NCBI GenBank assembly: GCA_028687205.1
Contig: JAQUAP010000001.1
Span: forward strand, 6,831 to 70,830
Direction of reading: 5' to 3'
Source of the DNA: Candidatus Omnitrophota bacterium
Lineage (GTDB): Bacteria > Omnitrophota > Gorgyraeia > Gygaellales > Profunditerraquicolaceae
Length of the DNA stretch: 64,000 nt
In this document: positions 18,498 to 64,000 of the stretch, piece by piece
Layout of the letters: each line of letters begins with the position of its first letter
Numbering within the stretch: the stretch's first letter is position 1
Notes under the pieces: generated by a model
What the model was told of the DNA's origin: nothing
What the model saw: the letters and a program-made list of their open reading frames with translations, nothing else
The model's database searches: none
Position numbers and translations under genes: made by a program

Positions 18498-19433
18498 CTA
18501 CCGGTCTATGCCGCGCCGGTCTCTTACGTAATTACTTCTCTCCAGGCTTTTGGCGTAAGCCTTTAGCTCCGCGCCTATCTCTCCGATTTGCGCCACGTGC
18601 GCTATCTTCCTGGATTCATTGGTCACTACACCGATAGATACAGAGAGGAGCGGAATTTTTTGTTCCAATCCCTGGCGGTCCTTGCCCGTTATATAGCCAT
18701 TCTTCCTGTCTTTTTCATTATAGAAGGAAGGGACAAGGTTTTCAAAATCTAAAATGACTTTTTGGCATAACGCTTCGGCCTTGTCAGGCGTAGTGACAAC
18801 GACGAAGTCATCGCCTCCGATATGCCCTACAAAATCGTCACGGTTACCCAGGTCCTGCGTTGCGCGGATAAGCAGGCGCGCAGTCTCGCGGATTACCTCA
18901 TCGCCGTGTTCAAACCCGTATTTATCGTTGTAAGATTTAAATTTATCCAGGTCCAGGTAGCATACGGCGAATAAGGCTTTGTTTTCGATGCGCCGGGATA
19001 ACTCTTTTAAGATTGAGACATTTCCAGGAAGACGGGTGAGGGGATTTGCCTCCAGGTCGCGCTCGGTATGCCTTAAAATCATGCGGATGCGCGCCAGCAA
19101 TTCTTTAGGCTCAAACGGCTTGACCACATAATCATCCGCCCCGGCGTCAATGCCGTCAACTTTGTCGCTGATATCGCCTTTGCCGGTGACCATAATTATA
19201 GGCAGGTGCCTGAGGAGTAAATCTTTTTTTATCCTTCGGCAGACCTCTCTGCCGTCGACCTTGGGAATTTTATAGTCCAGCAGGATTAAATCCGGCTGAT
19301 TAGCGTGGATCACCTTTAAGGCCCCCTCTCCGTCAGCGGCCTCGAGTATCTCGTAGTTTTCCTCGGAGAGGGTAAGTTTTAATACATCCCGGATATCCGG
19401 ATCGTCATCAACAATAAGTATTTTTACGCCCAT
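18498..19433 (-). CDS. Response regulator with receiver plus GGDEF-type domain (degenerate GGDDF motif)
   Basis: Receiver ILIVDDD...DLILLDYKIPKVDG; GGDEF-fold blocks DLDKFKSYNDKYGFEHGDEV and IGGDDFVVV. Confidence 0.8.
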   Translation of the reverse strand: MGVKILIVDDDPDIRDVLKLTLSEENYEILEAADGEGALKVIHANQPDLILLDYKIPKVDGREVCRRIKKDLLLRHLPIIMVTGKGDISDKVDGIDAGADDYVVKPFEPKELLARIRMILRHTERDLEANPLTRLPGNVSILKELSRRIENKALFAVCYLDLDKFKSYNDKYGFEHGDEVIRETARLLIRATQDLGNRDDFVGHIGGDDFVVVTTPDKAEALCQKVILDFENLVPSFYNEKDRKNGYITGKDRQGLEQKIPLLSVSIGVVTNESRKIAHVAQIGEIGAELKAYAKSLERSNYVRDRRGIDR

Positions 19434-26058: not shown

Positions 26059-28218
26059 ATGTCTAGGAAAATAGTCATATTCAGCACGAAGGGCGGAGTA
26101 GGCAAGACCTTGATTGCCACTAACCTCGCCTGTTCCCTGGCTAAAGAGCAGGGGCAAAAGGTCTGCCTGGTGGATTTAGACCTGCAGGCAGTCGGCGATA
26201 TGGCCCGCATGTTAGACCTTAAGGTGGACAGGAGCATGGTTGAGCTCATCCAGAATTTTAAGAAACAAGCGTCGGAATTCAAGAAAAGCGATTTTTTAAT
26301 CCATAGCTATATGGGCCTTGACCTTTTATGCGGAGTAATCCGGCCTCAACAGGCGCCGCACCTTAAGCCCGAAAATATTAAGGAGATATTTAGCCTGTTG
26401 GATAAAGATTACGATTATATGATTGTAGACGCCGGAAGGAGTTTTAGCGACCTGCTCCTGGCGACCTTAAATCAGGCAAACCTGATCATCCTGGTGGTTA
26501 CTCCCGATATACTTTCCATATACCAGGCGGAGTGGGCAATAGACACCCTGCAATCTTTGCAAATTCCTTTATCCATGATTAAGGTAATTTTAAACCGCGC
26601 CGAGTCTATCTCCAGTATCAGCCTACAGGAGATAAAAGTTAACCTGCTTTGCGGTATCCTCAACCAGATACCTTCGGAGGGCAGGGTTGTCGGCTTGGCC
26701 GTAAACCGCGGTATCCCGGTAGTCATCGACAGCCCGCGCTCGCGCTTTAGCCTGGCGATAAATAAACTGAGCGAGCAGTTAGTCAAGGATAAGGATTTAT
26801 TTACGGAGAACCGGGAGATAGACCAGTTGCGCCTGCAACAGGTGGCCTTAGAGAAGCCGGCAAAATTATGGGAAGAGGAAGGGCTGACCGAGCCGGTAAT
26901 CGAAGAGCTGACCGCCAAGGAAGAAATGGCGGACGATATCATCATCCTGAAAAGGAAGATCCATACCCGGCTGATCGATGAGTTGAATATTAAAAGGCTG
27001 GATTTAAAGGTTTTCAGCGACAGTAAAAAATCAAAGACCTTGCGCAGCAAGGCAGAGGTAATGGTAAGTAATTTTTTGGTTGAAGAAGCCGGGACCTTTA
27101 TTTCTTCCCCTGAAGTGCGCAAGAAACTGGTCAAGGAAATTTTAGATGAGGCCTTAGGCCTGGGGCCCTTGGATGACCTTTTAGCTACGCCCGATATCAC
27201 CGATATTATGGTCAATAATAAAGATGAGATATACATTGAAAAAAAAGGCAAAATAGAGCTGACCAGCAAAAAATTTATCTCCAATGAGCAGGTCAAGACA
27301 ATCATTGAAAGGATTATCGCGCCTATCGGTAAGAGGGTCGACGAATCTGTCCCGATGGTAGATGCGCGCCTTGCCGACGGCTCGCGCGTGAATGCCATTA
27401 TCCCGCCTTTAGCCCTGACCGGTCCCTCGTTAACTATAAGGAAATTCAGGAAAGAGAAATTTAAAATCGAGGATCTGATCCAGCTAAAGGCCCTAAACCA
27501 GAATATGGCTGATTTTATCAGCGCCTGCGTTATCTGCAGAAAAAATATCATTGTCTCCGGCGGTACCGGAAGCGGTAAGACCACGGCCTTAAATGTCCTT
27601 TCCGGATTTATCCCGGAAAACGAACGGATTATTACCATTGAAGATGCGGCAGAATTAAAGCTCGACCAGCAGCACTGGATAAGGCTGGAATCCCGGTCGC
27701 CTAATATTGAAGGCAGGGGAGCGGTAACCATAAGGGACCTTTTCCGCAATACCTTGAGAATGCGCCCGGACCGCATAATCATCGGCGAGTGCCGCGGTAT
27801 TGAAGCATTAGATATGCTCCAGGCGATGAATACCGGCCATGATGGCTCAATGACCACTATCCACGCTAATTCCACGCAGGATGTTTTAAGCCGCCTGGAT
27901 TCGATGATTCTCATGGGAGGAGTAGAGCTGCCGATCAGGGCCATCCGCGAGATGATTGCCTCGGCAATAGATTTAATTATCCACACTGCCAGGCTATCCG
28001 ATGGCTCGCGTAAGATTGTCCAGGTAACAGAGGTAAGCGGGATGAAGGATGAGCTGCATATCAACCTGCAGGATATCTTTATTTTTAAACAAACCGGCAT
28101 TGATGCCCAGGGTAGTGTACTGGGTGATTTCCAGGCTACCGGCCACATACCTTCCGCAATTGAAGAAATCAGGATAAAAGGCCTAAAGCTCTCCGATAGT
28201 ATATTTAAAGCTCCCTAA
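26059..28218 (+). CDS. cpaEF: Fused CpaE-like (MinD/ParA-family) and CpaF/TadA-like secretion ATPase
   Basis: N-terminal deviant Walker A IVIFSTKGGVGKT; C-terminal TadA/VirB11-type P-loop SGGTGSGKTT plus Asp and His boxes; 719 aa. Confidence 0.85.
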   Translation: MSRKIVIFSTKGGVGKTLIATNLACSLAKEQGQKVCLVDLDLQAVGDMARMLDLKVDRSMVELIQNFKKQASEFKKSDFLIHSYMGLDLLCGVIRPQQAPHLKPENIKEIFSLLDKDYDYMIVDAGRSFSDLLLATLNQANLIILVVTPDILSIYQAEWAIDTLQSLQIPLSMIKVILNRAESISSISLQEIKVNLLCGILNQIPSEGRVVGLAVNRGIPVVIDSPRSRFSLAINKLSEQLVKDKDLFTENREIDQLRLQQVALEKPAKLWEEEGLTEPVIEELTAKEEMADDIIILKRKIHTRLIDELNIKRLDLKVFSDSKKSKTLRSKAEVMVSNFLVEEAGTFISSPEVRKKLVKEILDEALGLGPLDDLLATPDITDIMVNNKDEIYIEKKGKIELTSKKFISNEQVKTIIERIIAPIGKRVDESVPMVDARLADGSRVNAIIPPLALTGPSLTIRKFRKEKFKIEDLIQLKALNQNMADFISACVICRKNIIVSGGTGSGKTTALNVLSGFIPENERIITIEDAAELKLDQQHWIRLESRSPNIEGRGAVTIRDLFRNTLRMRPDRIIIGECRGIEALDMLQAMNTGHDGSMTTIHANSTQDVLSRLDSMILMGGVELPIRAIREMIASAIDLIIHTARLSDGSRKIVQVTEVSGMKDELHINLQDIFIFKQTGIDAQGSVLGDFQATGHIPSAIEEIRIKGLKLSDSIFKAP

Positions 28219-39367: not shown

Positions 39368-40045
39368 ATGCCCAGGATAGGAAGAATAGTCCCTCTTGAT
39401 GCTACCTTACATGTCATCAGTAGGGGTAATAACCGCCGAGTTGTGTTTCATAGTGAAAGTGACAAATTGAGATATTATGCATTATTATTTAAATTGAAGC
39501 AAGAAAATAAGATAGATATTTTACACTATTGCTTGATGGCCAACCATGTCCATTTGGTCCTCCAGCTTAAACCGGAAAGCACCCTAGCTAAGTTTATGAA
39601 ACAGCTTAATTTAACGTATTCTCATTACTATAGGAAGCTATATGAATATGCCGGCTATCTCTGGCAAGGCAGATTCAAAAGCAATATAATTGAAATGGAC
39701 TCATATTTATTGCAATGCGGTAAATATATTGAACTTAATCCGGTTCGGGCGGGCATTATAGCTCATCCCGCACAATACCTTTTCTCAAGCTATAATTTCT
39801 ATGCGGAAGGCAAATCCGACTCACTTGTTACTCCGAGCCCGGTATACCTGGGTTTAGCTGGCTCACCTGCGCGAAGGCAGGAACAATATATTGATTTTGT
39901 AATTGACAGCAGTATAATAAACTCAGATTTACTCGCCTCTAAAATATATATAGGAAGCCAAGCTTTTATTAACCGCCTCCAAACTCAATATAAGATAGGG
40001 AATTACAGGGAGAAAAGGGGCAGGCCATTCAAAGCAGAACAATAA
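39368..40045 (+). mobile_element. IS200-like Y1 transposase of the REP-associated (RAYT/TnpA-REP) type
   Basis: N-terminal HVISRGNNRRVVF; HuH motif ANHVHLVLQL; WQGRFKS and YLLQCGKYIELNPVRAGI (catalytic Tyr region); flanked by palindromic elements D and E. Confidence 0.7.
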
Positions 40046-40051
40046 TAAAAA

Positions 40052-40068
40052 ATAGAAACGTCCCCTTT
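40052..40068 (+). repeat. REP-like half element E (ATAGAAACGTCCCCTTT) directly after the transposase stop
   Basis: Same arm sequence and orientation as the right arm of element D; overlaps the 5' end of the porin reading frame. Confidence 0.65.
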
Positions 40069-40071
40069 ATT

Positions 40072-41271
40072 TTACTGCTGACCGCATTAAGCTTATCTTT
40101 CGCTATACAGCATGCCCAAGCCGCGCTCACCCCCTTAGAGATATCCCAGCAGGAAGAGCAAAAGATCGAAGGCCCCGTAAAAGACATCTGGTTTAACCGG
40201 CTCAGCGACTACCGCCAGGATGTCGCTAAAAAATATGGCACAAACTTTGCCTTTCTTTTTAATTATACCCAGCAGGCGATAATCAAGGCGCCTAACGACG
40301 AAGGCAAAAGCCGCGGGGTCTGGTATTGGAACTTTGAGATAGCCCAGAAGCTCTGGCCAGGCGCAGAGTTGTTCGTAGAATTTGAGATGGATAGAGGTAA
40401 GGGGGTAGATAAGTTTTTGCCCACTTTTTCTTCCTTTAACGATAACTCCGGGGATGACGCCTGGTTTTATCTGCCGGTTTTATATTTAGAGCAGTATCTT
40501 CTCGACGATAAGCTCTTTTTCGCCGCCGGCAAGCTGGATCTAACTTACTGGTTTGACTGGAACGAGGCAGCGAGCTCTGCGGATACCCAATTCTTATCCA
40601 GTGCCCTGGTAAATAACCTGGCTATTCCCTTTCCGGCTAAAGGCCTGGGTGCCCTGGCCTGCATTACGCCCTTAGAATGGCTCTATTTTCAGTCCGGCGC
40701 AGCTACTGCTAAAGCCAGCTCTACCAAGGTCGGCCTAAGCGACGGATTTAACAGCACTTTTTTTATCAATGAGCTGGGTTTCACTCCTAAGTTCGGCTCC
40801 TTGCAAGGAAATTACCGTTTTATCTTTTACCTGAACCGCGAAAAGTCAGATTACCTTAATTCTGACGAAAGCAAAAAGATAGATTCCGGCTGGGCCTTAA
40901 GCTTTGACCAGCAAGTGGCTAAAAACATAATTTTATTTTTGCGCTACGGTTTTAGCGACCAAAAAGTCAGGGAGATTGAATATTTCTGGTCAGGAGGTAT
41001 GCAGATACTTGAGCCCATCCCTGGCCGTAAATTTGACTGCCTGGGAATAGGCGTAGCCCGCTCTATTTTTGGCAATGATTACCGCGAGGCAAACGAAGAA
41101 GAAGATTCTAGCGTCAGCCGCGCAGAGACAATTTATGAAGCCTATTACAGCTACCATTTAAATAACAGCCTAACCTTAACTCCGGATATCCAAATAGTCA
41201 TCCACCCCAATGCCGATAATTCGGCGAAGACAGAAATCGTCTGCGGTCTCAGATTCCTGCTCAGCTTCTAA
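40072..41271 (+). CDS. OprB-family (carbohydrate-selective) outer-membrane porin-like protein; 5' end and start codon unresolved
   Basis: Frame open upstream of the 40369 ATG back to about 40045 and encodes a signal peptide ...LLLTALSLSFAIQHAQA|ALTPLE; C-terminal ...VCGLRFLLSF with terminal Phe; no canonical start codon upstream of the signal peptide. Confidence 0.5.
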   Translation, partial: LLLTALSLSFAIQHAQAALTPLEISQQEEQKIEGPVKDIWFNRLSDYRQDVAKKYGTNFAFLFNYTQQAIIKAPNDEGKSRGVWYWNFEIAQKLWPGAELFVEFEMDRGKGVDKFLPTFSSFNDNSGDDAWFYLPVLYLEQYLLDDKLFFAAGKLDLTYWFDWNEAASSADTQFLSSALVNNLAIPFPAKGLGALACITPLEWLYFQSGAATAKASSTKVGLSDGFNSTFFINELGFTPKFGSLQGNYRFIFYLNREKSDYLNSDESKKIDSGWALSFDQQVAKNIILFLRYGFSDQKVREIEYFWSGGMQILEPIPGRKFDCLGIGVARSIFGNDYREANEEEDSSVSRAETIYEAYYSYHLNNSLTLTPDIQIVIHPNADNSAKTEIVCGLRFLLSF

Positions 41272-41359
41272 GTTAAATTTATTGTCCAAACTGAATTCTC
41301 GTCGCTGTTTTAATGTCCATTCTACCTCAAAATAATCTAAAAATGTCCATTCTTCTAAT

Positions 41360-41454
41360 AAAGGGGACGTTTCTATTTTTTTGTCGCCTGATTGCTAGAA
41401 AAAATAGAAACGTCCCCTTTATTTCCTTGGCCATTAGGCCAAAACCGTCCCCTG
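41360..41454 (+). repeat. Palindromic REP-like element F (two inverted arms plus a third partial arm AACCGTCCCCTG)
   Basis: Arms at 41360..41376 and 41404..41420; partial copy at 41443..41454. Confidence 0.7.
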
Positions 41455-41562
41455 GGTAGCTAATTTTGGGGCAAAATCAGCTGTTTTTCAGCCCGTTTTT
41501 TAGCTAAAAATTAGCCTCCTTTCGGGGACTGAAAGCGTTACCAAAATAAGCTAAATTTTCCC

Positions 41563-41590
41563 TTGACAGCGACGAGCTACGTGTTATACT
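41563..41590 (+). promoter_or_regulatory. Sigma70-like promoter (TTGACA-N16-TATACT) for the giant gene
   Basis: Consensus -35 with a 16-nt spacer; about 25 nt upstream of the riboswitch-like leader. Confidence 0.55.
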
Positions 41591-41615
41591 TTGGATGTAA
41601 TTGAGACAAGTAACG

Positions 41616-41745
41616 AAATGGCAAACCCGGAGAAATCCGGGGGCGCAAAGCCGCGGGTCCTAAAATAATTCAAGTAAATAGCTTCAAAGGATAGCCGGGC
41701 TGCCGAATTACCGACGGAAATTTGACAGTTCGGCTCTTTCTTTTT
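41616..41745 (+). ncRNA. Putative c-di-GMP-I (GEMM) riboswitch with terminator-like expression platform
   Basis: GGCAAACC at 41620..41627; hairpin CCCGGA-GAAA-TCCGGG (GNRA loop) at 41626..41641; GGCGCAAAGCC at 41642..41652; 3' UUACCGACGG at 41708..41717 (compare Vc2 UUACCGAUGG); hairpin GCCGAA/TTCGGC plus TCTTTCTTTTT at 41702..41745. Confidence 0.6.
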
Positions 41746-41879
41746 AGAAGCTTAGTAAAGCATTTTACAAACGCTTTATAAAATGAAGATAAAAGCGACT
41801 CAAGCAAAACTTGGAGTAGTGCTGGGGGTAAGGGGGGAATTATATTCAACCCTATTTGGATATAGTAATATAATAATAA

Positions 41880-44800
41880 AATGATAAAACCAAAAGCCCA
41901 CACAGAAGACAGGGTCGTCTCCAAAAAAGAATCCAAGGAAGGATTCAAATCCAGCTTTAAGACTTGGATCCGTGTGGTGGCTTTTATTGTGGCAGCGGTA
42001 TTCTTACCTGAGCAGGTTGCCCAGGCAGTCGAGTATGACTGGCGCGTGCTCTGGCATAAACCTGCTATCGGCCTTCCCTCAAATAACGCATTTTCCCCGG
42101 ATTACCTCAAAAACGTTCAAAATATCAATGTTCCGCAAGCTGTAAGAAGCATCCTCAAAGATATAGCCAATAAGCCCATAATTTCCATTAAAATCTCGGA
42201 TAATTTGACCATAGAGCTGGATAAGCCCTTAAAAATGTCCAATCAGAGGATAGATGAGCTATTCAACTGGTTGGTGGGCAAACCCTGCGGTTCCAAGGCG
42301 CTTTATGACTTATTAATGTACCAGGGACTGTCCCCGCAGGGGACTGTCCCTGATTCTTTAGAGCAGGATATCGCGGTTTTTGCCCTGACCGTAGATATCT
42401 TAAATGATGTGCTCAAGCCGGAAGGCAACCCTAAGGTGATCAAGAATTCCCTTTATGCCTTAGCCAAGGCCTCAGAGTTCTTCGGCCTGAAACTTTATCC
42501 GGTTAAGATAGATTCGTTGCAGGAAACTACTCCTGCGCCTTTCATTGCCCATTTAAACGGCGATCACTATGTTTTAATCACCAAGATCAGCGGTGATAAG
42601 ATCTATTTTCTGGATGAGCACAAAGAAGAGTTCCTGCCTTTAGAAAAATTCCTCCAGGATTTTTCCGGATACGCATTAGTACAGGGACTGTCCCCGAAGG
42701 GGACTGTCCCTTTGAATGACGCCGAAGCCAAAAAGATCCTGGGCGCGCGTTCCAATAAGAAAGGTTACGCGGATATCTCGTCTTTATTTGAAGAGCCCTC
42801 CAGCAGCGATTTGTTGTTGGGTGCGGGTATTACTATAGCTGCCTGTGCCGCAGCTTCTTATTTAGGCCCGGCAATGAGCGGCGGCACAGCTACCTGGAAC
42901 ACAGGTAGTGCGGTAGCCTCTTTTGGCCAGGGAATGTTCTATAGCCAGATTGGCCAGGCAGCGACCAATATAGGTGTGCGTAATCTCGGAATGAATGCCA
43001 CTACTGCCGGGATATTCGGCACTGCAACTATCGGCGCGCTTACAGGCGGGACTTCTGCGTATGCTCAAGGCGCAACGGGTTTTAGCGGTATAGGCCAGGG
43101 CGCTTTAAACGGAGCTCTTTTAGGCGCGGCCAAGGCCGGAGCCAGCGTCTTCGCCTATGATATGCTGAAAGATACTAGCTTCTTCAAAAACAATCCTTAC
43201 ATCGGCAGGCAGTTTGCTAATTTAGCCGGCAGCGCTATAGGTTATACCGCTTTTATGGGAACTATGGGCGCTTTATCAGGGACAGCTTTAGACACAGGTT
43301 ACAAAATGAAAGTTTATGCGGCAGATGGACAATCTTACAAGTGGGAGTCTCCGCAGACTTTATCTCAAGGTGTGGGAATGGCCTTGGACAGCATGAAAGG
43401 TTCCCTGGTTCAGCAGGGCGTAGGTTTAGCCGTGGAATATGCTGCTTCAGAAGGCTGGTTAGGCGGCACTTTACAGAAGCATCCCGGTTATAGCCGTTTA
43501 TTAGGCGAACCCCTTGGCGGTTTCGCTGGAGCAAATGCCGGTAGCCTGACTACATATCAGAGCGTTATGAACGGGCTCCTCTCTGGCGGTGTCTCAATCG
43601 GCCTTACTGCTTTAGGCGGTAATTATGATGAGATTACGGGTAAAAATAGCCTGGGTATGACAAGAATGCAGATGTCCACTTTAAATTGGGCAGGTACAGC
43701 ATTAGCCTATGCCGGCACAGGCGCTTTAATAGCCGATACCGATAAAGCCAGCATATTTAAGACTGCCTTTGTAAAACGCCTTGAAGGCCTTAGTACAAAT
43801 TATTTAACTTTTGGCGGAACTTCTCCTCTTTCTACTGGAGGCGGTCGTGGTTGGTCTGAAGTCCAGTATATAGAGAAAATCTCCCAGCTTGCCGGTATCT
43901 CTGATTTTAAGGCTAACGCCGATTACGCAATGAAAAAAGCCGGCTATACCGATTGGAATAAATTTGTAGAAGACGGCCGCTTAAGCTCACTCATGCCCTC
44001 TATTTCTTATTCTTTGGTTAACTATGCGCAGTCCAGCCTTCATTATGCCGCGGTAAATAATCTTGTTGATACCGTGGGTTATTCCAAAACAGCCGCGGAT
44101 TTATTCGGCATCCCGCACAGTAAGATTATCGAACAGGAATTTAACAACGAAAAACACGCTTGGCTGGCGCCCATACAGCCGAATAAAACTGGCCCAATAG
44201 TCGGCGAGAATTACTTTAGTGGCTTAAAAGGAAGCGATATAAGAATAAGGATGGAGGATGGAGAGACCGTATTGCTTTCTTTACGCGCGGGCTTAAGGGA
44301 CCCTTTGAATACCAAGGTGAAAGAAGGAGATAATGAGTTGCTCTTTAGTAAAGAGCAGATTAGCCTTGCCGGCATAAAAGATAAGCGTAAAGACGGAATG
44401 GGCGAGATTAAGATAGTTGGCGAACGTAGTGATTTTTTACAGGGCGCCCTTGAGGAAATTTCTGCTAACGCCGAAGGCGATTTAGCAATTTTTGCCAAAC
44501 AGGATATCTCCAAGACCGATTATTATAAGGGGTCATATACTTTCCAATACAGAAAAGATGAGCCGACAATTTTGGATGTCTATACTTCAGGCAAGGTTAC
44601 CCAGAAGGACTATTGGTTTAACGATGAAAAACAGGTGAATGTCGGCAGGATGTATGTTTATGCGGATAATCCGATTAAGGCGAAGGAGAATAAAGATTAC
44701 CTGGATTATGCCGCGTTTCTCTCGCGCGCTGACGGCAAATACCCCGTAGACGCCTTAGGTTATCGTAAGCTAAGCAATGGCCAGATAGAAGTTACCGCAG

Positions 44801-61000: not shown

Positions 61001-64000
61001 AAGGGGCTATGGGGTCCCGGTCTACAAAGTCAACGCAGAACACAACTAATCTAGCCTGGGCAGGACTCAACGTTCCTGCCCTGGCTGGAGCAGTTTCATC
61101 CAGCCCGGTCAGCAACATCGAGAAAACCATAGGTAGATTTATAATACTGCCTTTGTTGGTTATAGGCATTTTATGGGGCGGATATAGGCTAGTTGATTTT
61201 ACTTTTGGGAAGACATCTTCGCTTGTCCATGAATGGGCATTATCTCAGAAACAAAACTTAGGGTATAAAGCTTACAATTTACTCACCGGGAAAGAAATAC
61301 CTTTTGACGAGATAGCCGTTACGAATACCCTGGTTATCCTCGGTAAGGGAGCAAAAGTTTCTAGCGATGACATCTATTATGGCAGGTGTATTTATTTCAT
61401 CTTCATCGATAACGGTGGGAAAGCAGTTGCTGTTCTGCATGCTCCCGGATCCAAGGACCTAGTCGAGTGTCTTGCCGATACAATGGAGAATGCGAAGGGA
61501 TTATTAGAAAAGAATGGTGTTAAAGTTTACGGAGCGATAGCTATTACTGGTTATGTAACCAGGGAAAATGAGAGAGCAATTGCTATGTTGCCTAAAAATT
61601 TGAAGCTCTTTACAAAAGAGACTGGCCAGCACACTACTGAGGTTATCGTATACGCAGATGGGAAGAACATTTCAGTTATCGGCCTTGGCCCGATTTATCA
61701 AGGGCCTATTTCAGGATTTATCCAGCAGCCTTCTTCCAGTCCGGTGGAAGTCACAAGAAGAGAAGCGTTAAAGCTGCTGCTTGGCATATTAGTTATCGCC
61801 AGCCAGGCCAGCGGAATTATCGGCTGCGCAAACAAATCCAAGGATATTGCTCCGGAAGAATTATTAGCCAAGTTGAAGTCCGTTGTACCCGAAGGAATAA
61901 TCAAAAAAGCTGCCCAGGCCTGGGGAGTTGAGCCGGAATTATTAGCCGCCATTGTTATGGAGGAGGTTGAATATACCCAAAACCTTAACTTGGCAAGCTA
62001 TATACTTAAGGAATATATTCAGCCTACTTTTATAAAATTTGGCATCAACGGGACATTCGGCATAGCCAGGACTGCCTTGCCGGATACTTTAAATGATACG
62101 TTCTGGAAGAATATCCAGACCTACGGCGAATCTTTGAAAATAAGGACTCAGGGTAAGCGGTCTTTTGAAGAATTAATGGAAGTTGTAAAAGTTGCCCGCG
62201 AGCGCAGGAACCTGAAATCGGTCAGGTCCGCAGAAACAGCTCTGCTTTACGATGTATTCAGTGTGCCGGAATTCAATGTATTCATAAGCGCGTATTGGAT
62301 TAGCATAAAATTAAGATTAAACGGCTCAAATCGGGCCCTTTCTAAGGAAGAAAAGGCGATTATGCGCTATAAGGGCATTGTCAATGCCGGTCAGCGCCTT
62401 GAAAGGACTAAATTTTTCTATTATTGGCTAAAGGAAAAGCAGGTATTGGCAACTTCTTCCAGCCCGGTGGGCGCCTATGTTACTACGCACGCAACCTCCA
62501 GCCCGGTTGAGGAAGCGGCCGTTGAGGCTATTAAAAATCTGGAGTCTCCGGAAATTACCGATCGCCGCAGAGCTTTTAAAACAATGACCGACAACCCCTG
62601 GTTAATCGAAGAATGGTTAACTGTCGAATGTATCGAGGCGCTTGTTAAGGTCATCCAGGATGACGAGAATGCCGAAGTAACCCGCGGCAATAAGTTGATG
62701 AAAAAATACAATACGCACGAACAAGAGGGCATAAACTGGTATCATGTAAAGCACAGCGCCATTTATCTCCTTGCCACATATCTCCTTGAGCCTATCGCTA
62801 TAGAAAAATTGGGTTTAGAGAAATTCATATATCTTCTGTCAGTCATTGAGGGCGAATGTGGGGCCAAGAGCAGAGCGCCTTGCGTTGCCGATTTGTCAAA
62901 GCGTTTAGTCAGCAGGATAAATGAGAAATATGGATTCTTGGGATCTTCCAGCCCGGTGGGAGCTTATGTAACCACCTCCCTTAAAGAAGTTAGAATCTCC
63001 GAACAAATAAGCAAAGAAATAACCGCATATCTTAATGGCGTAAAAGAACGCTTAGAATCTGATTTTAATAATGCGCAATATTCTGCCTTACAGAAAGATG
63101 TACTCAAATTGGTTGAAGAAGTGAGAGGAAGATGGCTTGAGAAAGGCGCAGACGAAGAAACTTATAAGATCTTATCTTTTACCTTTGCCAAGGGCGGCGT
63201 GCATAAAGAAATTGATGTAGCAAATAAGGGCGCTGCGTTGATTGGACGGATAGATTTACTGTCGTTAGGAATCAAGCCAGATAAACAACATATAGAAATA
63301 GAAAGAATCTTTAAAGAAGTGCGGAGGGTTATTAGGGATATTTCAGAGATTGTGGCTTATCCTGGCCCTATTCCTGTCGCGAGATTAGGAGGCGGAGAAG
63401 CCGGGATTTATTACGAAGCACTAGACCCTGTCTTCATTGCCGAAAAAATACTTAAAGAATCAATCACCGCCTCCAGCCCGGTTAAAACAATCGCAGAGCT
63501 TGAGGCAGAAATTGAAGCGTTAAAGGCGGAAAATGCTGCATTAAGAAGGATAAACCGCATTGACCCATTGACTAAGTTGCATAACAGGAGAGATTTTGAC
63601 GATGTCCTTAAAGGGATGATGAAGAATGCCGACAGGAACCCGGGCAGGCGCCTGCTCTTTGTGTTGATAGACATTGACTTCTTCGGCATAGTTAACAAGA
63701 TATTCGGCCATGATGCCGGCGACGTAGTGTTGAAGTCATTCGCCAGGACGATTAAGAATAAGATAAGGCCGGCAGTTGATTATGTGGCCCGTTATGGCGG
63801 CGAAGAGTTCGCGCTCTTATTGAACGGCGTAGATGCAGAAACGGCAAAAGCGAGAATAATCGGCAGATGCGCTGAGGCAGTGAAGAAATTGGAACTTCCG
63901 GAGTTAGAGGTTAGCCTTGAGGCAGGCGTGCTTAAAAACAAGATAGCCAATGTTGCCGGCGCGGACAGGACAAAAATGCATTTTGCCGTTATTCATCAGT
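51967..64000 (+). CDS. Giant ORF, continuation (open to the window end, 4,010+ codons): HExxH motif, 5x heptad tandem, Gly-rich linker, LysM-like module, TM segments, coiled coils, TPR/HEAT-like repeats, C-terminal GGDEF (GGEEF) domain
   Basis: Frame opens after TAA at 51964..51966 and has no stop through 64000 (spot-checked across the region); overlaps the previous segment by 77 nt; removing one G in GGCGGCCC (~52018) joins the two as ...KPAAAGALGRILINPGRG...; end region DPLTKLHNRRDFDD...ARYGGEEFALLL. Confidence 0.6.
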   Translation, partial: MDYTAGDKRANLKPAAAGALGRILINPGRGILSAASGAANYWRIDNNLGSNLDKIKATERFVLNKAMRDNIGGIPSGMLSFAFYTADSYMQAYSESYTVRAITHTALHPLQVIKDIFTSIDLTTKTINSLSSGIPKDKWVEVGMFLGGMIGASKGYSNLGSRLATEAKASSFTSFMANTHTSAASLVYLNAAFTFLPLITDGGAGDPQAWFKQLYYGAYNMDQSAQGAMTMALAWNVLRAGLGRLRQTGAGQAVDKLVNNHLEHATPAVKYGLPLAMTVGGAELYALNKDKQDDLQANYLAHTGLVIAGIGAMLLANKIEKSSAYRWLREEGKQMPQPNALGLEAAEKTTAKTRTEKIFGTHSSRLYGKEWVKTELKYNIRWGGIGAIAGLVGAASSGKIKDWHDRIEYLVLGAIGGMAILRNLPALVKTGARVGVKGTEITGAGALTYGAKKMTFDPLAGWIEGELGYRNDFNFTRATTPHLFRAGDTQDDLVYALSMGVVGLGIAKVSTTAIKAYREKGAAGLEKPEGVINKGFLTKAEQHLMRSGQDLEPFLQSWSKDWGKNVLSSVGTMAVGYGLYNWGKEGEARNKDLSTLWKYAGVAMVGMGLLKTVGILGGDLNLRAIANLRGKNQAIAGAMATAAGAGLFLWGSSDDLKDAQLAGLDLGKIIQVSGGALAAVGALNMFAGVRGMRLQGKNLEAAVNNSALSRYAGNSLATAKGIIWDFGARGTTVNLFTVIAPLFGVIAATSWFTQKYISSSSYSKLEKTILDYTAGAFLNNDIKKGPLSINTYSDIVGGKGEKWAEAKGLWAKLSILGLLADRAYTASLFGTDANAKVKGDFKSMADAVSKLGSSGRIWNALDKSNVSFSAALALLYPVAEPFFSNIKPGNFGYKFQAVGKAMEDVFGGAAIAGISPRAAAQASSPLRILNMITTGTIEETVTEQAIQMILNITPLGPVLGPQAVEVIQEIASPFGNAHMNYIPSRAMAKNYVNGNLQRVQGLIDKVDAKLAKPDANTDILNHQLGRLNTTKRFYENIAGNLDLANGSAEGVIGAMLPLLQSKINSLGSVGLAAIRNNLGAMDAVEFKAKGLYSLVNQDTKDIVTAQASSDGKTVDVDAAQNLNFNIDASGRLSIRPNVVGHYNIGGGAHELVHLFVDKNRSNEKIAPLVRQIQSSLGYKTVGSVPLEISEWGPNEMLTQYFSMLFLAKYIANHKLDYSTDSSASSIQDLVERTLNRRFDDLGQAMASVNAMAQPDLLAPKVASDDFMAHVIDFVQWKNGNRVEVNYEAKVGQLKSMLQEKGIHLEQAGSAEFKKAGIYLNADGNTTEAGQGGDITVQINRDVQDKGAAYEAYVLYHETAQALREQIGNQDTVLKEFGSVREQFQKTQDKKAVQALDDFMDYLKTYDSVLKDYVVGLVEAGKEAKVSLEDLTSIKARIQASFHYDNEDNAAVISGLDKLISGLQEGGQEVTVADIRKLARQSVNPEYHRAIEFWGHTAPLLYTPELAKSIIGKNKALKRLADSIQKYPLLADFLRKQNEALGMPKIATSSPARDAGIKSRILAAALAALTAGTTAKSSSPVDSSSPAERTQPMALPVAAATAAQVALGSLVNTNFTQQVIVPGSSPVIPAGVTLSALLPNTPFAKNLIIAGYNSDTAPPAGAIAHNFISNVVPASSSVIEKLTGSQIVSPEETSGSTRVNSKTANSGVFVPTESSSPAINKDKLIELTELLLKEAPRLTGQIKSRGRQNIDRLAQKRIAVFAAKHGVTAEKAGEIIDYLAAYEEMLGELKTIQDDNKKQIRLNGESKEVDISIEDLFSRPEIQKVVNRINDRDLGDMNEERIRKIFDIAEEVLAVLITTVPEAEELFNKKFAEQFTDTYIKEAITDIGKRMERMEDNQKTQGKAIETQGKAIETQGKAIETQGKAIETQGKAIKGIDTRLGEVQRAQEQFRADVNARFIVIEAAQVEVNEIIVAINNCIAGALRNFKVKQGVWRIREEYKRLGKKFTILEVKRIINNVAAQLDLLTERVRIFGASEKEIADLPENIRKDSIVLISEGDKLHAVPIKAMVLKKDEKEDYYFYAQENNVQGGTVLNNRRIYLSELVRLNGKIVIISYEEYKDSFKYEFSDQEIAQLKGEVEGTGIGGGAGTGQGGAGAGAGAGGSPLGGGNAGAGTDDDKYDTAGSPMLDTHDIKPYNIPEVNMTIDPASYRATADLAPPVAALALNPAINTLTEELFVIEKGDKAYAGKTLEEAYDKAYGLETEEKPVRKASIFSWVNEHPKAVSLALAGLAFGLVYVGGPLLNNIGNAWAADLQTEPVAPQTVDSFAVKKGDTLWKHFRADWKKAYDANPQIHGRLGEKIGPQYPDTKQIVIIYPNEKIKKPAVGPVQKAEEKVTAKPETKLKPEETLAQPPAGQEVISKEDAVKGKSVISHIKEFFNNNKATVSFALGLIITGILVRVFWPKITKLWNSYRETAAKKARESAAREEQERLAKEAEAKKAVEERARLEREAAERLVAENAKKAAEEKAKEIKDYLGYSESGYEVTAKEEVYPEATTGNQEGQILADKEPSSIKDNIALGDRYYSEGRYSEALRAYQIAEEALLNLKSGFDRIQLNTENCCEEELKANGATKNEINKLNGKLVRVEVMVSKCYSKLGDQKKAVEVLNSAKLINPTVFKQILAQEEATSSPLNQIPVVPAAVTIVRNATITSASLNRLAAVIAYVRSLKNNRADLERVFSALETKATATGRNIHNILAPPSLRAAASVGSSPVEVYSNTNGGGQNEKLTAGIRRGIKDVRDAILNRGISGKTLKSGPGKPGRPWYLGADCYARIKAFLQENRLHSLSERVILLIRAPPYLLLYRANTVVIAAVRNSLLPVLSNTKSITNNLINLTLTKLLTLSVAGVLAAYVVVWVAQEPSSREMTPLVATLTTIIIGGALCVLSMSMKSESTTSLTLPRTGLRLLQPARMTATLGSFLSMILPVPSTLVMDVQIAGRKLSGLIASLLGQRSATQGAMGSRSTKSTQNTTNLAWAGLNVPALAGAVSSSPVSNIEKTIGRFIILPLLVIGILWGGYRLVDFTFGKTSSLVHEWALSQKQNLGYKAYNLLTGKEIPFDEIAVTNTLVILGKGAKVSSDDIYYGRCIYFIFIDNGGKAVAVLHAPGSKDLVECLADTMENAKGLLEKNGVKVYGAIAITGYVTRENERAIAMLPKNLKLFTKETGQHTTEVIVYADGKNISVIGLGPIYQGPISGFIQQPSSSPVEVTRREALKLLLGILVIASQASGIIGCANKSKDIAPEELLAKLKSVVPEGIIKKAAQAWGVEPELLAAIVMEEVEYTQNLNLASYILKEYIQPTFIKFGINGTFGIARTALPDTLNDTFWKNIQTYGESLKIRTQGKRSFEELMEVVKVARERRNLKSVRSAETALLYDVFSVPEFNVFISAYWISIKLRLNGSNRALSKEEKAIMRYKGIVNAGQRLERTKFFYYWLKEKQVLATSSSPVGAYVTTHATSSPVEEAAVEAIKNLESPEITDRRRAFKTMTDNPWLIEEWLTVECIEALVKVIQDDENAEVTRGNKLMKKYNTHEQEGINWYHVKHSAIYLLATYLLEPIAIEKLGLEKFIYLLSVIEGECGAKSRAPCVADLSKRLVSRINEKYGFLGSSSPVGAYVTTSLKEVRISEQISKEITAYLNGVKERLESDFNNAQYSALQKDVLKLVEEVRGRWLEKGADEETYKILSFTFAKGGVHKEIDVANKGAALIGRIDLLSLGIKPDKQHIEIERIFKEVRRVIRDISEIVAYPGPIPVARLGGGEAGIYYEALDPVFIAEKILKESITASSPVKTIAELEAEIEALKAENAALRRINRIDPLTKLHNRRDFDDVLKGMMKNADRNPGRRLLFVLIDIDFFGIVNKIFGHDAGDVVLKSFARTIKNKIRPAVDYVARYGGEEFALLLNGVDAETAKARIIGRCAEAVKKLELPELEVSLEAGVLKNKIANVAGADRTKMHFAVIHQ
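57661..57765 (+). repeat. Five tandem copies of a 21-nt unit ACACAAGGAAAAGCTATAGAA (in-frame heptapeptide TQGKAIE x5) inside the giant ORF
   Basis: Four perfect copies plus one variant ending AAA. Confidence 0.85.

Follow-up and report, generated by a model that had tools for sequence, protein, structure and literature searches.

A probable class I c-di-GMP riboswitch, with the design of a transcriptional ON switch, in the leader of giant genes of Candidatus Omnitrophota

The window, the whole stretch of 64,000 nucleotides (64 kb) of Candidatus Omnitrophota DNA that was analysed, ends in a giant ORF on the plus strand (41881–63999). This ORF has an ATG start and is still open at the end of the window, so that it comprises at least 7,373 codons. 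It encodes an N-terminal hydrophobic membrane anchor, a Peptidase_C39-like domain (aa 190–267) and a GGDEF domain (63559–63900) with an intact GGEEF motif (63796–63810). Homologues of its first 500 residues all came from Candidatus Omnitrophota assemblies. Upstream lies a Tad/Flp pilus locus, encoding CpaB, a secretin, a ParA-like/CpaF ATPase, two TadB/C-like proteins and one TadE/G-like protein. Within this locus a single ORF of 719 aa (26059–28218) combines a ParA/MinD-like (TadZ-type) ATPase domain with a CpaF/T2SSE ATPase. Also upstream, on the minus strand, genes were found for a FIST protein, a histidine kinase and a response regulator with a GGDEF domain (the last at 18498–19433). The original prediction had placed the giant gene in a c-di-GMP context, and the Tad locus, the FIST-histidine kinase-response regulator/GGDEF system and the GGDEF domain of the giant ORF bear this out. 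In that prediction the gene also ends in this domain, but the reading frame is still open at 63999.

The region directly upstream of the giant gene contains an IS200-like (Y1 transposase) ORF (39368–40045), followed by an OprB-family porin ORF (both within 39368–41271). The porin ORF has no N-terminus; it matches the profile only from position 46 onwards, and no start codon occurs among its first 125 open codons. The porin gene was probably truncated by insertion of the IS200-like element. Downstream of the porin remnant, AATGTCCATTCT is present as an exact direct repeat (41312–41323 and 41342–41353, 30-nt spacing). A perfect 25-nt inverted repeat is located at 41357–41423, with arms (41357–81 and 41399–423) that are 100% complementary and flanked by an A-run and a T-run. 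This repeat is probably a bidirectional terminator, which would insulate the giant-gene unit from the truncated porin gene upstream.

The leader of the giant gene is preceded by a sigma-70-type promoter on the plus strand (41563–41590). As had been proposed, it consists of TTGACA (41563–68), a 16-nt spacer and TATACT (41585–90); it also has an extended -10 TG at 41582–83. The promoter matches at 11 of 12 positions and is the sole sigma-70-like site within 41000–42200. Its position is identical in close relatives, and a match of at least 10/12 was found within 75 nt upstream of 66 of the 71 aptamers described below. From the promoter, the start of transcription is predicted near 41597, approximately 12 nt before helix P1 of the aptamer. 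An 11-nt sequence in the conserved promoter spacer, ACAGCGACGAG (41566–41576), recurs without mismatch in inverted orientation 257 nt further upstream (41298–41308); the two copies could form an operator pair, or they could match by chance.

The whole window was scanned with the Rfam 15 covariance models at gathering thresholds. The sole riboswitch match in the 64 kb was at 41611–41708 (+), with 67.5 bits and an E-value of 8e-14. Given this E-value over the whole window and a single such match, the aptamer is far beyond chance. A covariance-model search had been named beforehand as the check on a candidate GEMM-I riboswitch, and it returned a significant match to the c-di-GMP-I clan (CL00126), above the gathering score. 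The top model was RF03167 (c-di-GMP-I-GGC; gathering score 59), which was covered over its full length and also remained best in a rescan of the trimmed interval 41617–41707 (58.9 bits). A second, lower-scoring family of the clan passed its own gathering threshold at the same place. We infer that this family is RF01051 (gathering score 35), since the RNA carries the equivalents of G20 and C92 of the Vibrio cholerae Vc2 riboswitch and not the U and U expected of RF03168. For the latter family (c-di-GMP-I-UAU) we assume from its name that it has U at both positions 20 and 92. RF01051 was the best model for the orthologous aptamers in loci L010 and L065 (57.8–58.6 bits against a gathering score of 35). 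A model built from the relatives (R1) found one copy only in the 64 kb window.

Every sequence string listed in the original prediction was found in place: GGCAAACC at 41620–27, the CCCGGA-GAAA-TCCGGG hairpin at 41626–41, GGCGCAAAGCC at 41642–52 and UUACCGACGG at 41708–17. The last of these had been compared with UUACCGA of Vc2, but the true homologue is CUGCCGA at 41700–06, which contains the equivalent of C92; UUAC at 41708–11 pairs with GUAA at 41610–13 and forms the distal part of the 3' strand of P1. P3 (41649–41701) had been missed altogether. The 5' strand of P1 (GUAACG, 41610–41615) pairs with 41704–05 and 41708–11 across an AA bulge, the 3' strand (41704–41711) thus reading CG, AA bulge, UUAC. 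P2 (41621–41646) has G-C and C-G closing pairs, an AAA bulge, a 6-bp stem (41626–31/41636–41) and a GAAA tetraloop (41632–35), and the P3 hairpin (41649–41701; 41649–60 paired with 41689–701) has a variable distal loop, with A41693 and G41694 bulged. All these features are on the plus strand. The ligand contacts of Vc2 are G20, A47 and C92 (PMC4744006); A47 inserts itself between the ligand's two guanines, and C92 is the base that forms a Watson-Crick pair with a ligand guanine. Their equivalents in the window are G41620, A41647 and C41703. In this class P2 and P3 are bridged by an interhelical C-G pair of the Watson-Crick type, described as universally conserved (PMC4744006); at sequence level its two bases are present as C41644 and G41694.

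An alignment of the N-terminal domain of the giant gene was used to scan one genome per species, which yielded 80 Omnitrophota loci (L001–L080). With model R1 the aptamer was found upstream of the homologous N-terminus in 69 of the 80, and Rfam gave a clan match in front of the gene for 18 of the first 20 loci. The aptamer usually starts approximately 210–350 nt before the giant gene. Three of the 11 loci without aptamer have less than 220 nt of upstream sequence; the other 8 have sufficient upstream sequence. No other Rfam riboswitch was detected in the loci without aptamer, showing that the element was not replaced there by c-di-GMP-II. Seventy aptamers from relatives were aligned with that of the window. 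Among these 71, the contact bases are A at the A47 position in all 71, C at the C92 position in 70 and G at the G20 position in 66. Of the two interhelical bases, C is conserved in 70/71 and G in 71/71. The loop of P2, which in this class docks into P3, is GNRA in 70/71.

A fold obtained with RNAalifold from the raw MAFFT alignment was rejected, as it mis-joined the GG-C base of P2 to the 3' end. The Rfam architecture was therefore imposed on the alignment and then tested by counting pairs. Over the 25 pairs of the GEMM-I fold and 71 sequences, 93.6% of the cells were paired, against 28–46% in controls in which the pairing was slid. Double changes occurred at 15 pairs, in 232 cells; shuffled alignments gave 66 ± 9, and none of 500 shuffles reached the observed value. 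The 6-bp stem of P2 is 99.5% paired with double changes at 6/6 pairs, and covariation was seen at all six of these pairs and at C22-G45 (CG in 31, UA in 31). P3 is 97.8% paired. P1 is only 77% paired across the relatives and its register varies, with two-sided changes at 5/6 pairs. The pairing result was repeated on an independent MAFFT alignment of 19 sequences. As judged from these alignments, the covariation in P1, P2 and P3 is strong.

Some loci showed a more complex arrangement. Some genomes have two or more paralogous giant-gene starts of the C39 type with a riboswitch in front of every one, as in the pairs L008/L064 and L046/L080, the members of a pair coming from the same assembly. In L035 (1241–2422), L055 (1784–2959), L059 (1758–2933) and L063 (1778–2959) a conserved ORF of 391–393 aa lies between riboswitch and giant gene, so that the riboswitch heads a two-gene unit there. 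No Pfam domain was found in this ORF in the four loci. L065 holds two c-di-GMP-I aptamers (85–232 and 2730–2831), the first of which precedes a transglutaminase-like ORF of 177 aa, followed by IS200-like and ORF6N genes. These two aptamers indicate that the c-di-GMP riboswitch regulon of the Omnitrophota is wider than the giant genes.

The aptamer overlaps an intrinsic terminator on the plus strand (41693–41745), consisting of a hairpin at 41693–41735 (10 + 6 + 2 bp) and a U-tract at 41737–45. The 5' arm of the hairpin, AGCCGGGCUG-C-CGAAUU, is made up of the 3' strand of P3, the unpaired equivalent of C92 and the 3' strand of P1. TTCGGC is located at 41730–35 and is followed by the U-tract CUUUCUUUUU, which is interrupted by C residues. 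It had been proposed that a GCCGAA/TTCGGC hairpin and a U-tract compete with P1. The terminator and the competition stand, while the stem is longer than was thought and P3 is contested as well; the short GCCGAA/TTCGGC register was rejected as main terminator stem because the relatives conserve the longer hairpin. An equivalent hairpin with U-tract, on the same aptamer strand, is present in 68 of 71 relatives. The terminator is 90% paired in 61 aligned sequences, against 27–54% with the partner slid. Its covariation is limited, as the 5' arm is frozen by the aptamer; compensation was seen where the aptamer strand varies (pair 8–45, UA in 33 and CG in 14; pair 10–43, GC in 54 and AU in 4).

The minimum-free-energy fold of the leader is the terminator hairpin (41693–41735) and not the aptamer. 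For the full leader, the fold with the terminator has -45.2 kcal/mol and that with the aptamer enforced -29.3 kcal/mol, i.e. the terminator hairpin is approximately 16 kcal/mol more stable. A transcript ending at 41718 folds spontaneously into P2 and P3. Since aptamer and terminator share the 3' strands of P3 and P1 they are mutually exclusive, and this exclusion, combined with energetics that favour the terminator, implies termination as the default state. A GC-rich hairpin with a U-tract, the stem of which shares a strand with the ligand-bound aptamer, is the arrangement of a transcriptional ON switch.

Taken together, we consider it highly probable that the leader contains a canonical class I c-di-GMP (GEMM-I) riboswitch that serves as a transcriptional ON switch for the Omnitrophota giant gene. 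The contact bases are canonical, the fold is backed by compensatory changes in 70 related aptamers and the conserved terminator overlaps the aptamer, and so the GEMM-I reading of the original prediction holds. Transcription would start near 41597 from the conserved promoter, and the first ~115 nt would fold into the P1/P2/P3 aptamer. Binding of c-di-GMP (by G41620, A41647 and C41703) would lock the 3' strands of P3 and P1 in the aptamer. The strand 41719–41735 could then not invade, no terminator would form and the polymerase would enter the ORF of more than 22 kb; the ligand would thus trap the aptamer co-transcriptionally and lead to read-through. When the ligand is absent, 41719–41735 would capture 41693–41709, the hairpin would form and transcription would stop at the U-tract (41737–45). 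Binding of c-di-GMP by the window RNA, the direction of the response and its size in vivo are deduced from the sequence.

The best-scoring Rfam model would suggest another reading, namely that the RNA belongs to the pocket-altered c-di-GMP-I-GGC class, with another ligand or an altered sensing of c-di-GMP. RF03167 came out on top for the window (67.5 bits; gathering score 59) and was also the top model for 23 of the 26 clan matches in 38 related loci scanned. The two consensus sequences were therefore compared: RF01051 reads ...GGCAAAcc...GACGCAAAgCc...GGGcUgCCgaa and RF03167 reads ...GGCAAACC...GACGCGAAgCc...GGGcUGCcgaag. The only strongly conserved difference is at the A47 position of Vc2, which is A in RF01051 and G in RF03167. 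The window reads GGCGCAAAGCC, the match line of cmscan being blank exactly beneath the G of the RF03167 model, and the window and its 70 relatives all have A here. We take GGC in the name of RF03167 to denote positions 20/47/92, as the comparison of the consensus sequences supports; the pocket of the window (G41620, A41647, C41703) is then a canonical GAC and not GGC. The variant was reportedly defined by Weinberg et al. (PNAS 2017). An account of it was not found in the NAR 2017 paper (PMC5737381), and in the papers found that use the name it is listed without description. Its higher score is attributed to the narrowness of the RF03167 model, which apart from this base is close to these sequences; the 59-bit threshold is passed by less than 3 bits in many of the related matches. 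The RF03167 label is for this reason read as a scoring artefact, on the strength of the sequence comparison, and a true GGC variant is considered extremely unlikely. Twenty-three Omnitrophota aptamers with A at the A47 position (in loci L001–L020, L035, L051, L055, L059, L060 and L063) were labelled c-di-GMP-I-GGC, with 59.3–71.4 bits; this labelling is likely a systematic mis-annotation by clan competition. Such a label on canonical aptamers would wrongly imply an orphan ligand, which calls for caution in annotation.

We attach equally little probability to a riboswitch for 3',3'-cGAMP (c-AMP-GMP; GEMM-Ib) like the pilM element of Geobacter, even though that element has the same fold and the same exclusive design of aptamer and terminator. 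The change G20A in Vc2 opens the pocket to cGAMP (PMC7288161), and GEMM-Ib is recognised by A at the G20 position. This position is G in the window (41620) and in 66 of 71 aptamers, and the neighbouring genes encode GGDEF domains with the standard GGEEF motif. Three relatives do have A at this position (L061, L027 and L024), and L064 has C; the A variants might have a relaxed or cGAMP-leaning specificity. That a c-di-GMP-I riboswitch is present but works as an OFF switch, or acts on translation, is also very unlikely. Well-studied class I cases are OFF switches, such as Cd1 of Clostridioides difficile, where the terminator forms alongside the aptamer and both are opposed by an anti-terminator (PMC9262584). 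An OFF switch would require such an anti-terminator opposed to the aptamer, and a terminator that can coexist with the aptamer; here the terminator itself consumes the 3' half of the aptamer, in the window and in 68/71 relatives. Action on translation is opposed by the start codon lying 135 nt past the U-tract and by the finding that no conserved pairing links the aptamer to the start codon.

The canonical c-di-GMP-I ON switch was compared with known systems. It resembles Vc2 and RF01051 in having P1, P2 and P3, a GNRA loop on P2 and the interhelical C and G, and it has the GGCAAAC and GCAAAGCC cores and the contact bases G20/A47/C92 of this class. Unlike in Vc2, P1 of the window is extended distally by 4 bp and has an AA bulge, the distal part of P3 varies, is rich in AU and shows no obvious 11-nt receptor, the aptamer scores slightly higher on the RF03167 model and the host is Candidatus Omnitrophota. 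With RF03167 it shares the best score and the full-length match, but not the G at the A47 position. In mechanism it parallels pilM of Geobacter metallireducens (GEMM-Ib, transcriptional ON), which has been studied experimentally; there aptamer and terminator folds exclude each other, the ligand prevents termination, and the 3' strand of the aptamer with its ligand-pairing C is tied up in the terminator (PMC9262584). In the window the terminator likewise takes this strand with the ligand-pairing C, and the target is again related to the cell surface or pili. In contrast to pilM, the G at the G20 position implies c-di-GMP as ligand, and the target is a giant multidomain ORF instead of a pilus operon. 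Cd1 has the same class of aptamer and an intrinsic terminator, but the logic in the window is opposite.

The giant genes of the Omnitrophota, the largest known in bacteria, code for some of the largest proteins on record. To our knowledge, nothing has been reported on the control of their costly expression. For giant genes of the 'Archaeovorin' type, West-Roberts et al. (bioRxiv 10.1101/2023.11.21.568195) described domains of the C39 and GGDEF families, a secretion locus upstream and PilZ genes downstream, and they connected these genes to c-di-GMP through PilZ and GGDEF. Within the window, the giant ORF likewise has an N-terminal C39-like domain next to a membrane/signal segment, a GGDEF domain and a type II secretion/Tad-like (pilus) locus upstream; the conserved leader riboswitch is an addition to the published description. 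The word riboswitch is absent from that preprint and from the other Omnitrophota genome papers searched, and no paper in the literature searched brings Omnitrophota and a c-di-GMP riboswitch together. The riboswitch class is known; what is new, as far as this literature goes, is its link to the Omnitrophota 'Archaeovorin'-type giant genes.

Because the same device precedes homologous giant genes in approximately 70 related genomes, Omnitrophota giant genes appear to be switched on by c-di-GMP through transcription attenuation (~70 loci, mostly from species-level representative genomes). The conserved ON riboswitch points to c-di-GMP as the signal for giant-gene expression, and would tie this signal to the GGDEF domains inside the giant proteins and to the PilZ genes reported downstream. 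The interest lies in the target, riboswitch-gated giant genes of which the product itself carries a cyclase domain. This suggests a positive feedback through the GGEEF domain of the giant ORF itself. In addition, the short leader RNA is amenable to in vitro work, although the organisms are uncultivated. More tentatively, and with considerable doubt on our part, the riboswitch may be the entry gate of a self-reinforcing commitment circuit peculiar to the Omnitrophota giant genes. In such a circuit c-di-GMP would relieve termination, the giant protein would bring an active GGEEF cyclase of its own, with PilZ partners encoded downstream, and expression would lock in. Under the same tentative proposal, a second element of the leader that is conserved across the phylum, a G-box (GGGGUAAGGGG) with a AUAUAGGUAA box, would perhaps form a separate, undescribed device. 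Transcription or translation of an mRNA of 22 kb to more than 100 kb could depend on it, with processive antitermination and ribosome loading as examples of how it might act.

In the window, this G-box (GGGGGUAAGGGGGG, 41824–41837, plus strand) lies between terminator and start codon, in approximately 135 nt of conserved leader beyond the terminator, which may add another layer of control. Of 71 leaders, 65 have GGGG-N(1–4)-GGGG at the equivalent place; in L001–L080 the G-box, GGGG(G)UAAGGGG(GG), precedes the start codon by approximately 45–57 nt. Next come a U-rich stretch and the AUAUAGGUAA box, the latter approximately 10 nt before the ATG. No conserved pairing and no Rfam match were found in the G-box region, and inspection by eye of the leaders with a G-box revealed no conserved upstream mini-ORF. 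The G-box could be a ribosome-loading or antitermination element. Directly after the terminator (41746–41790) the window also contains a GCUUAGUAAAG-AUUUUACAAACGCUUUAUAAAA motif, which is near-identical in close relatives and of which the GCUUAnUAA core recurs in 17 of the 71 leaders.
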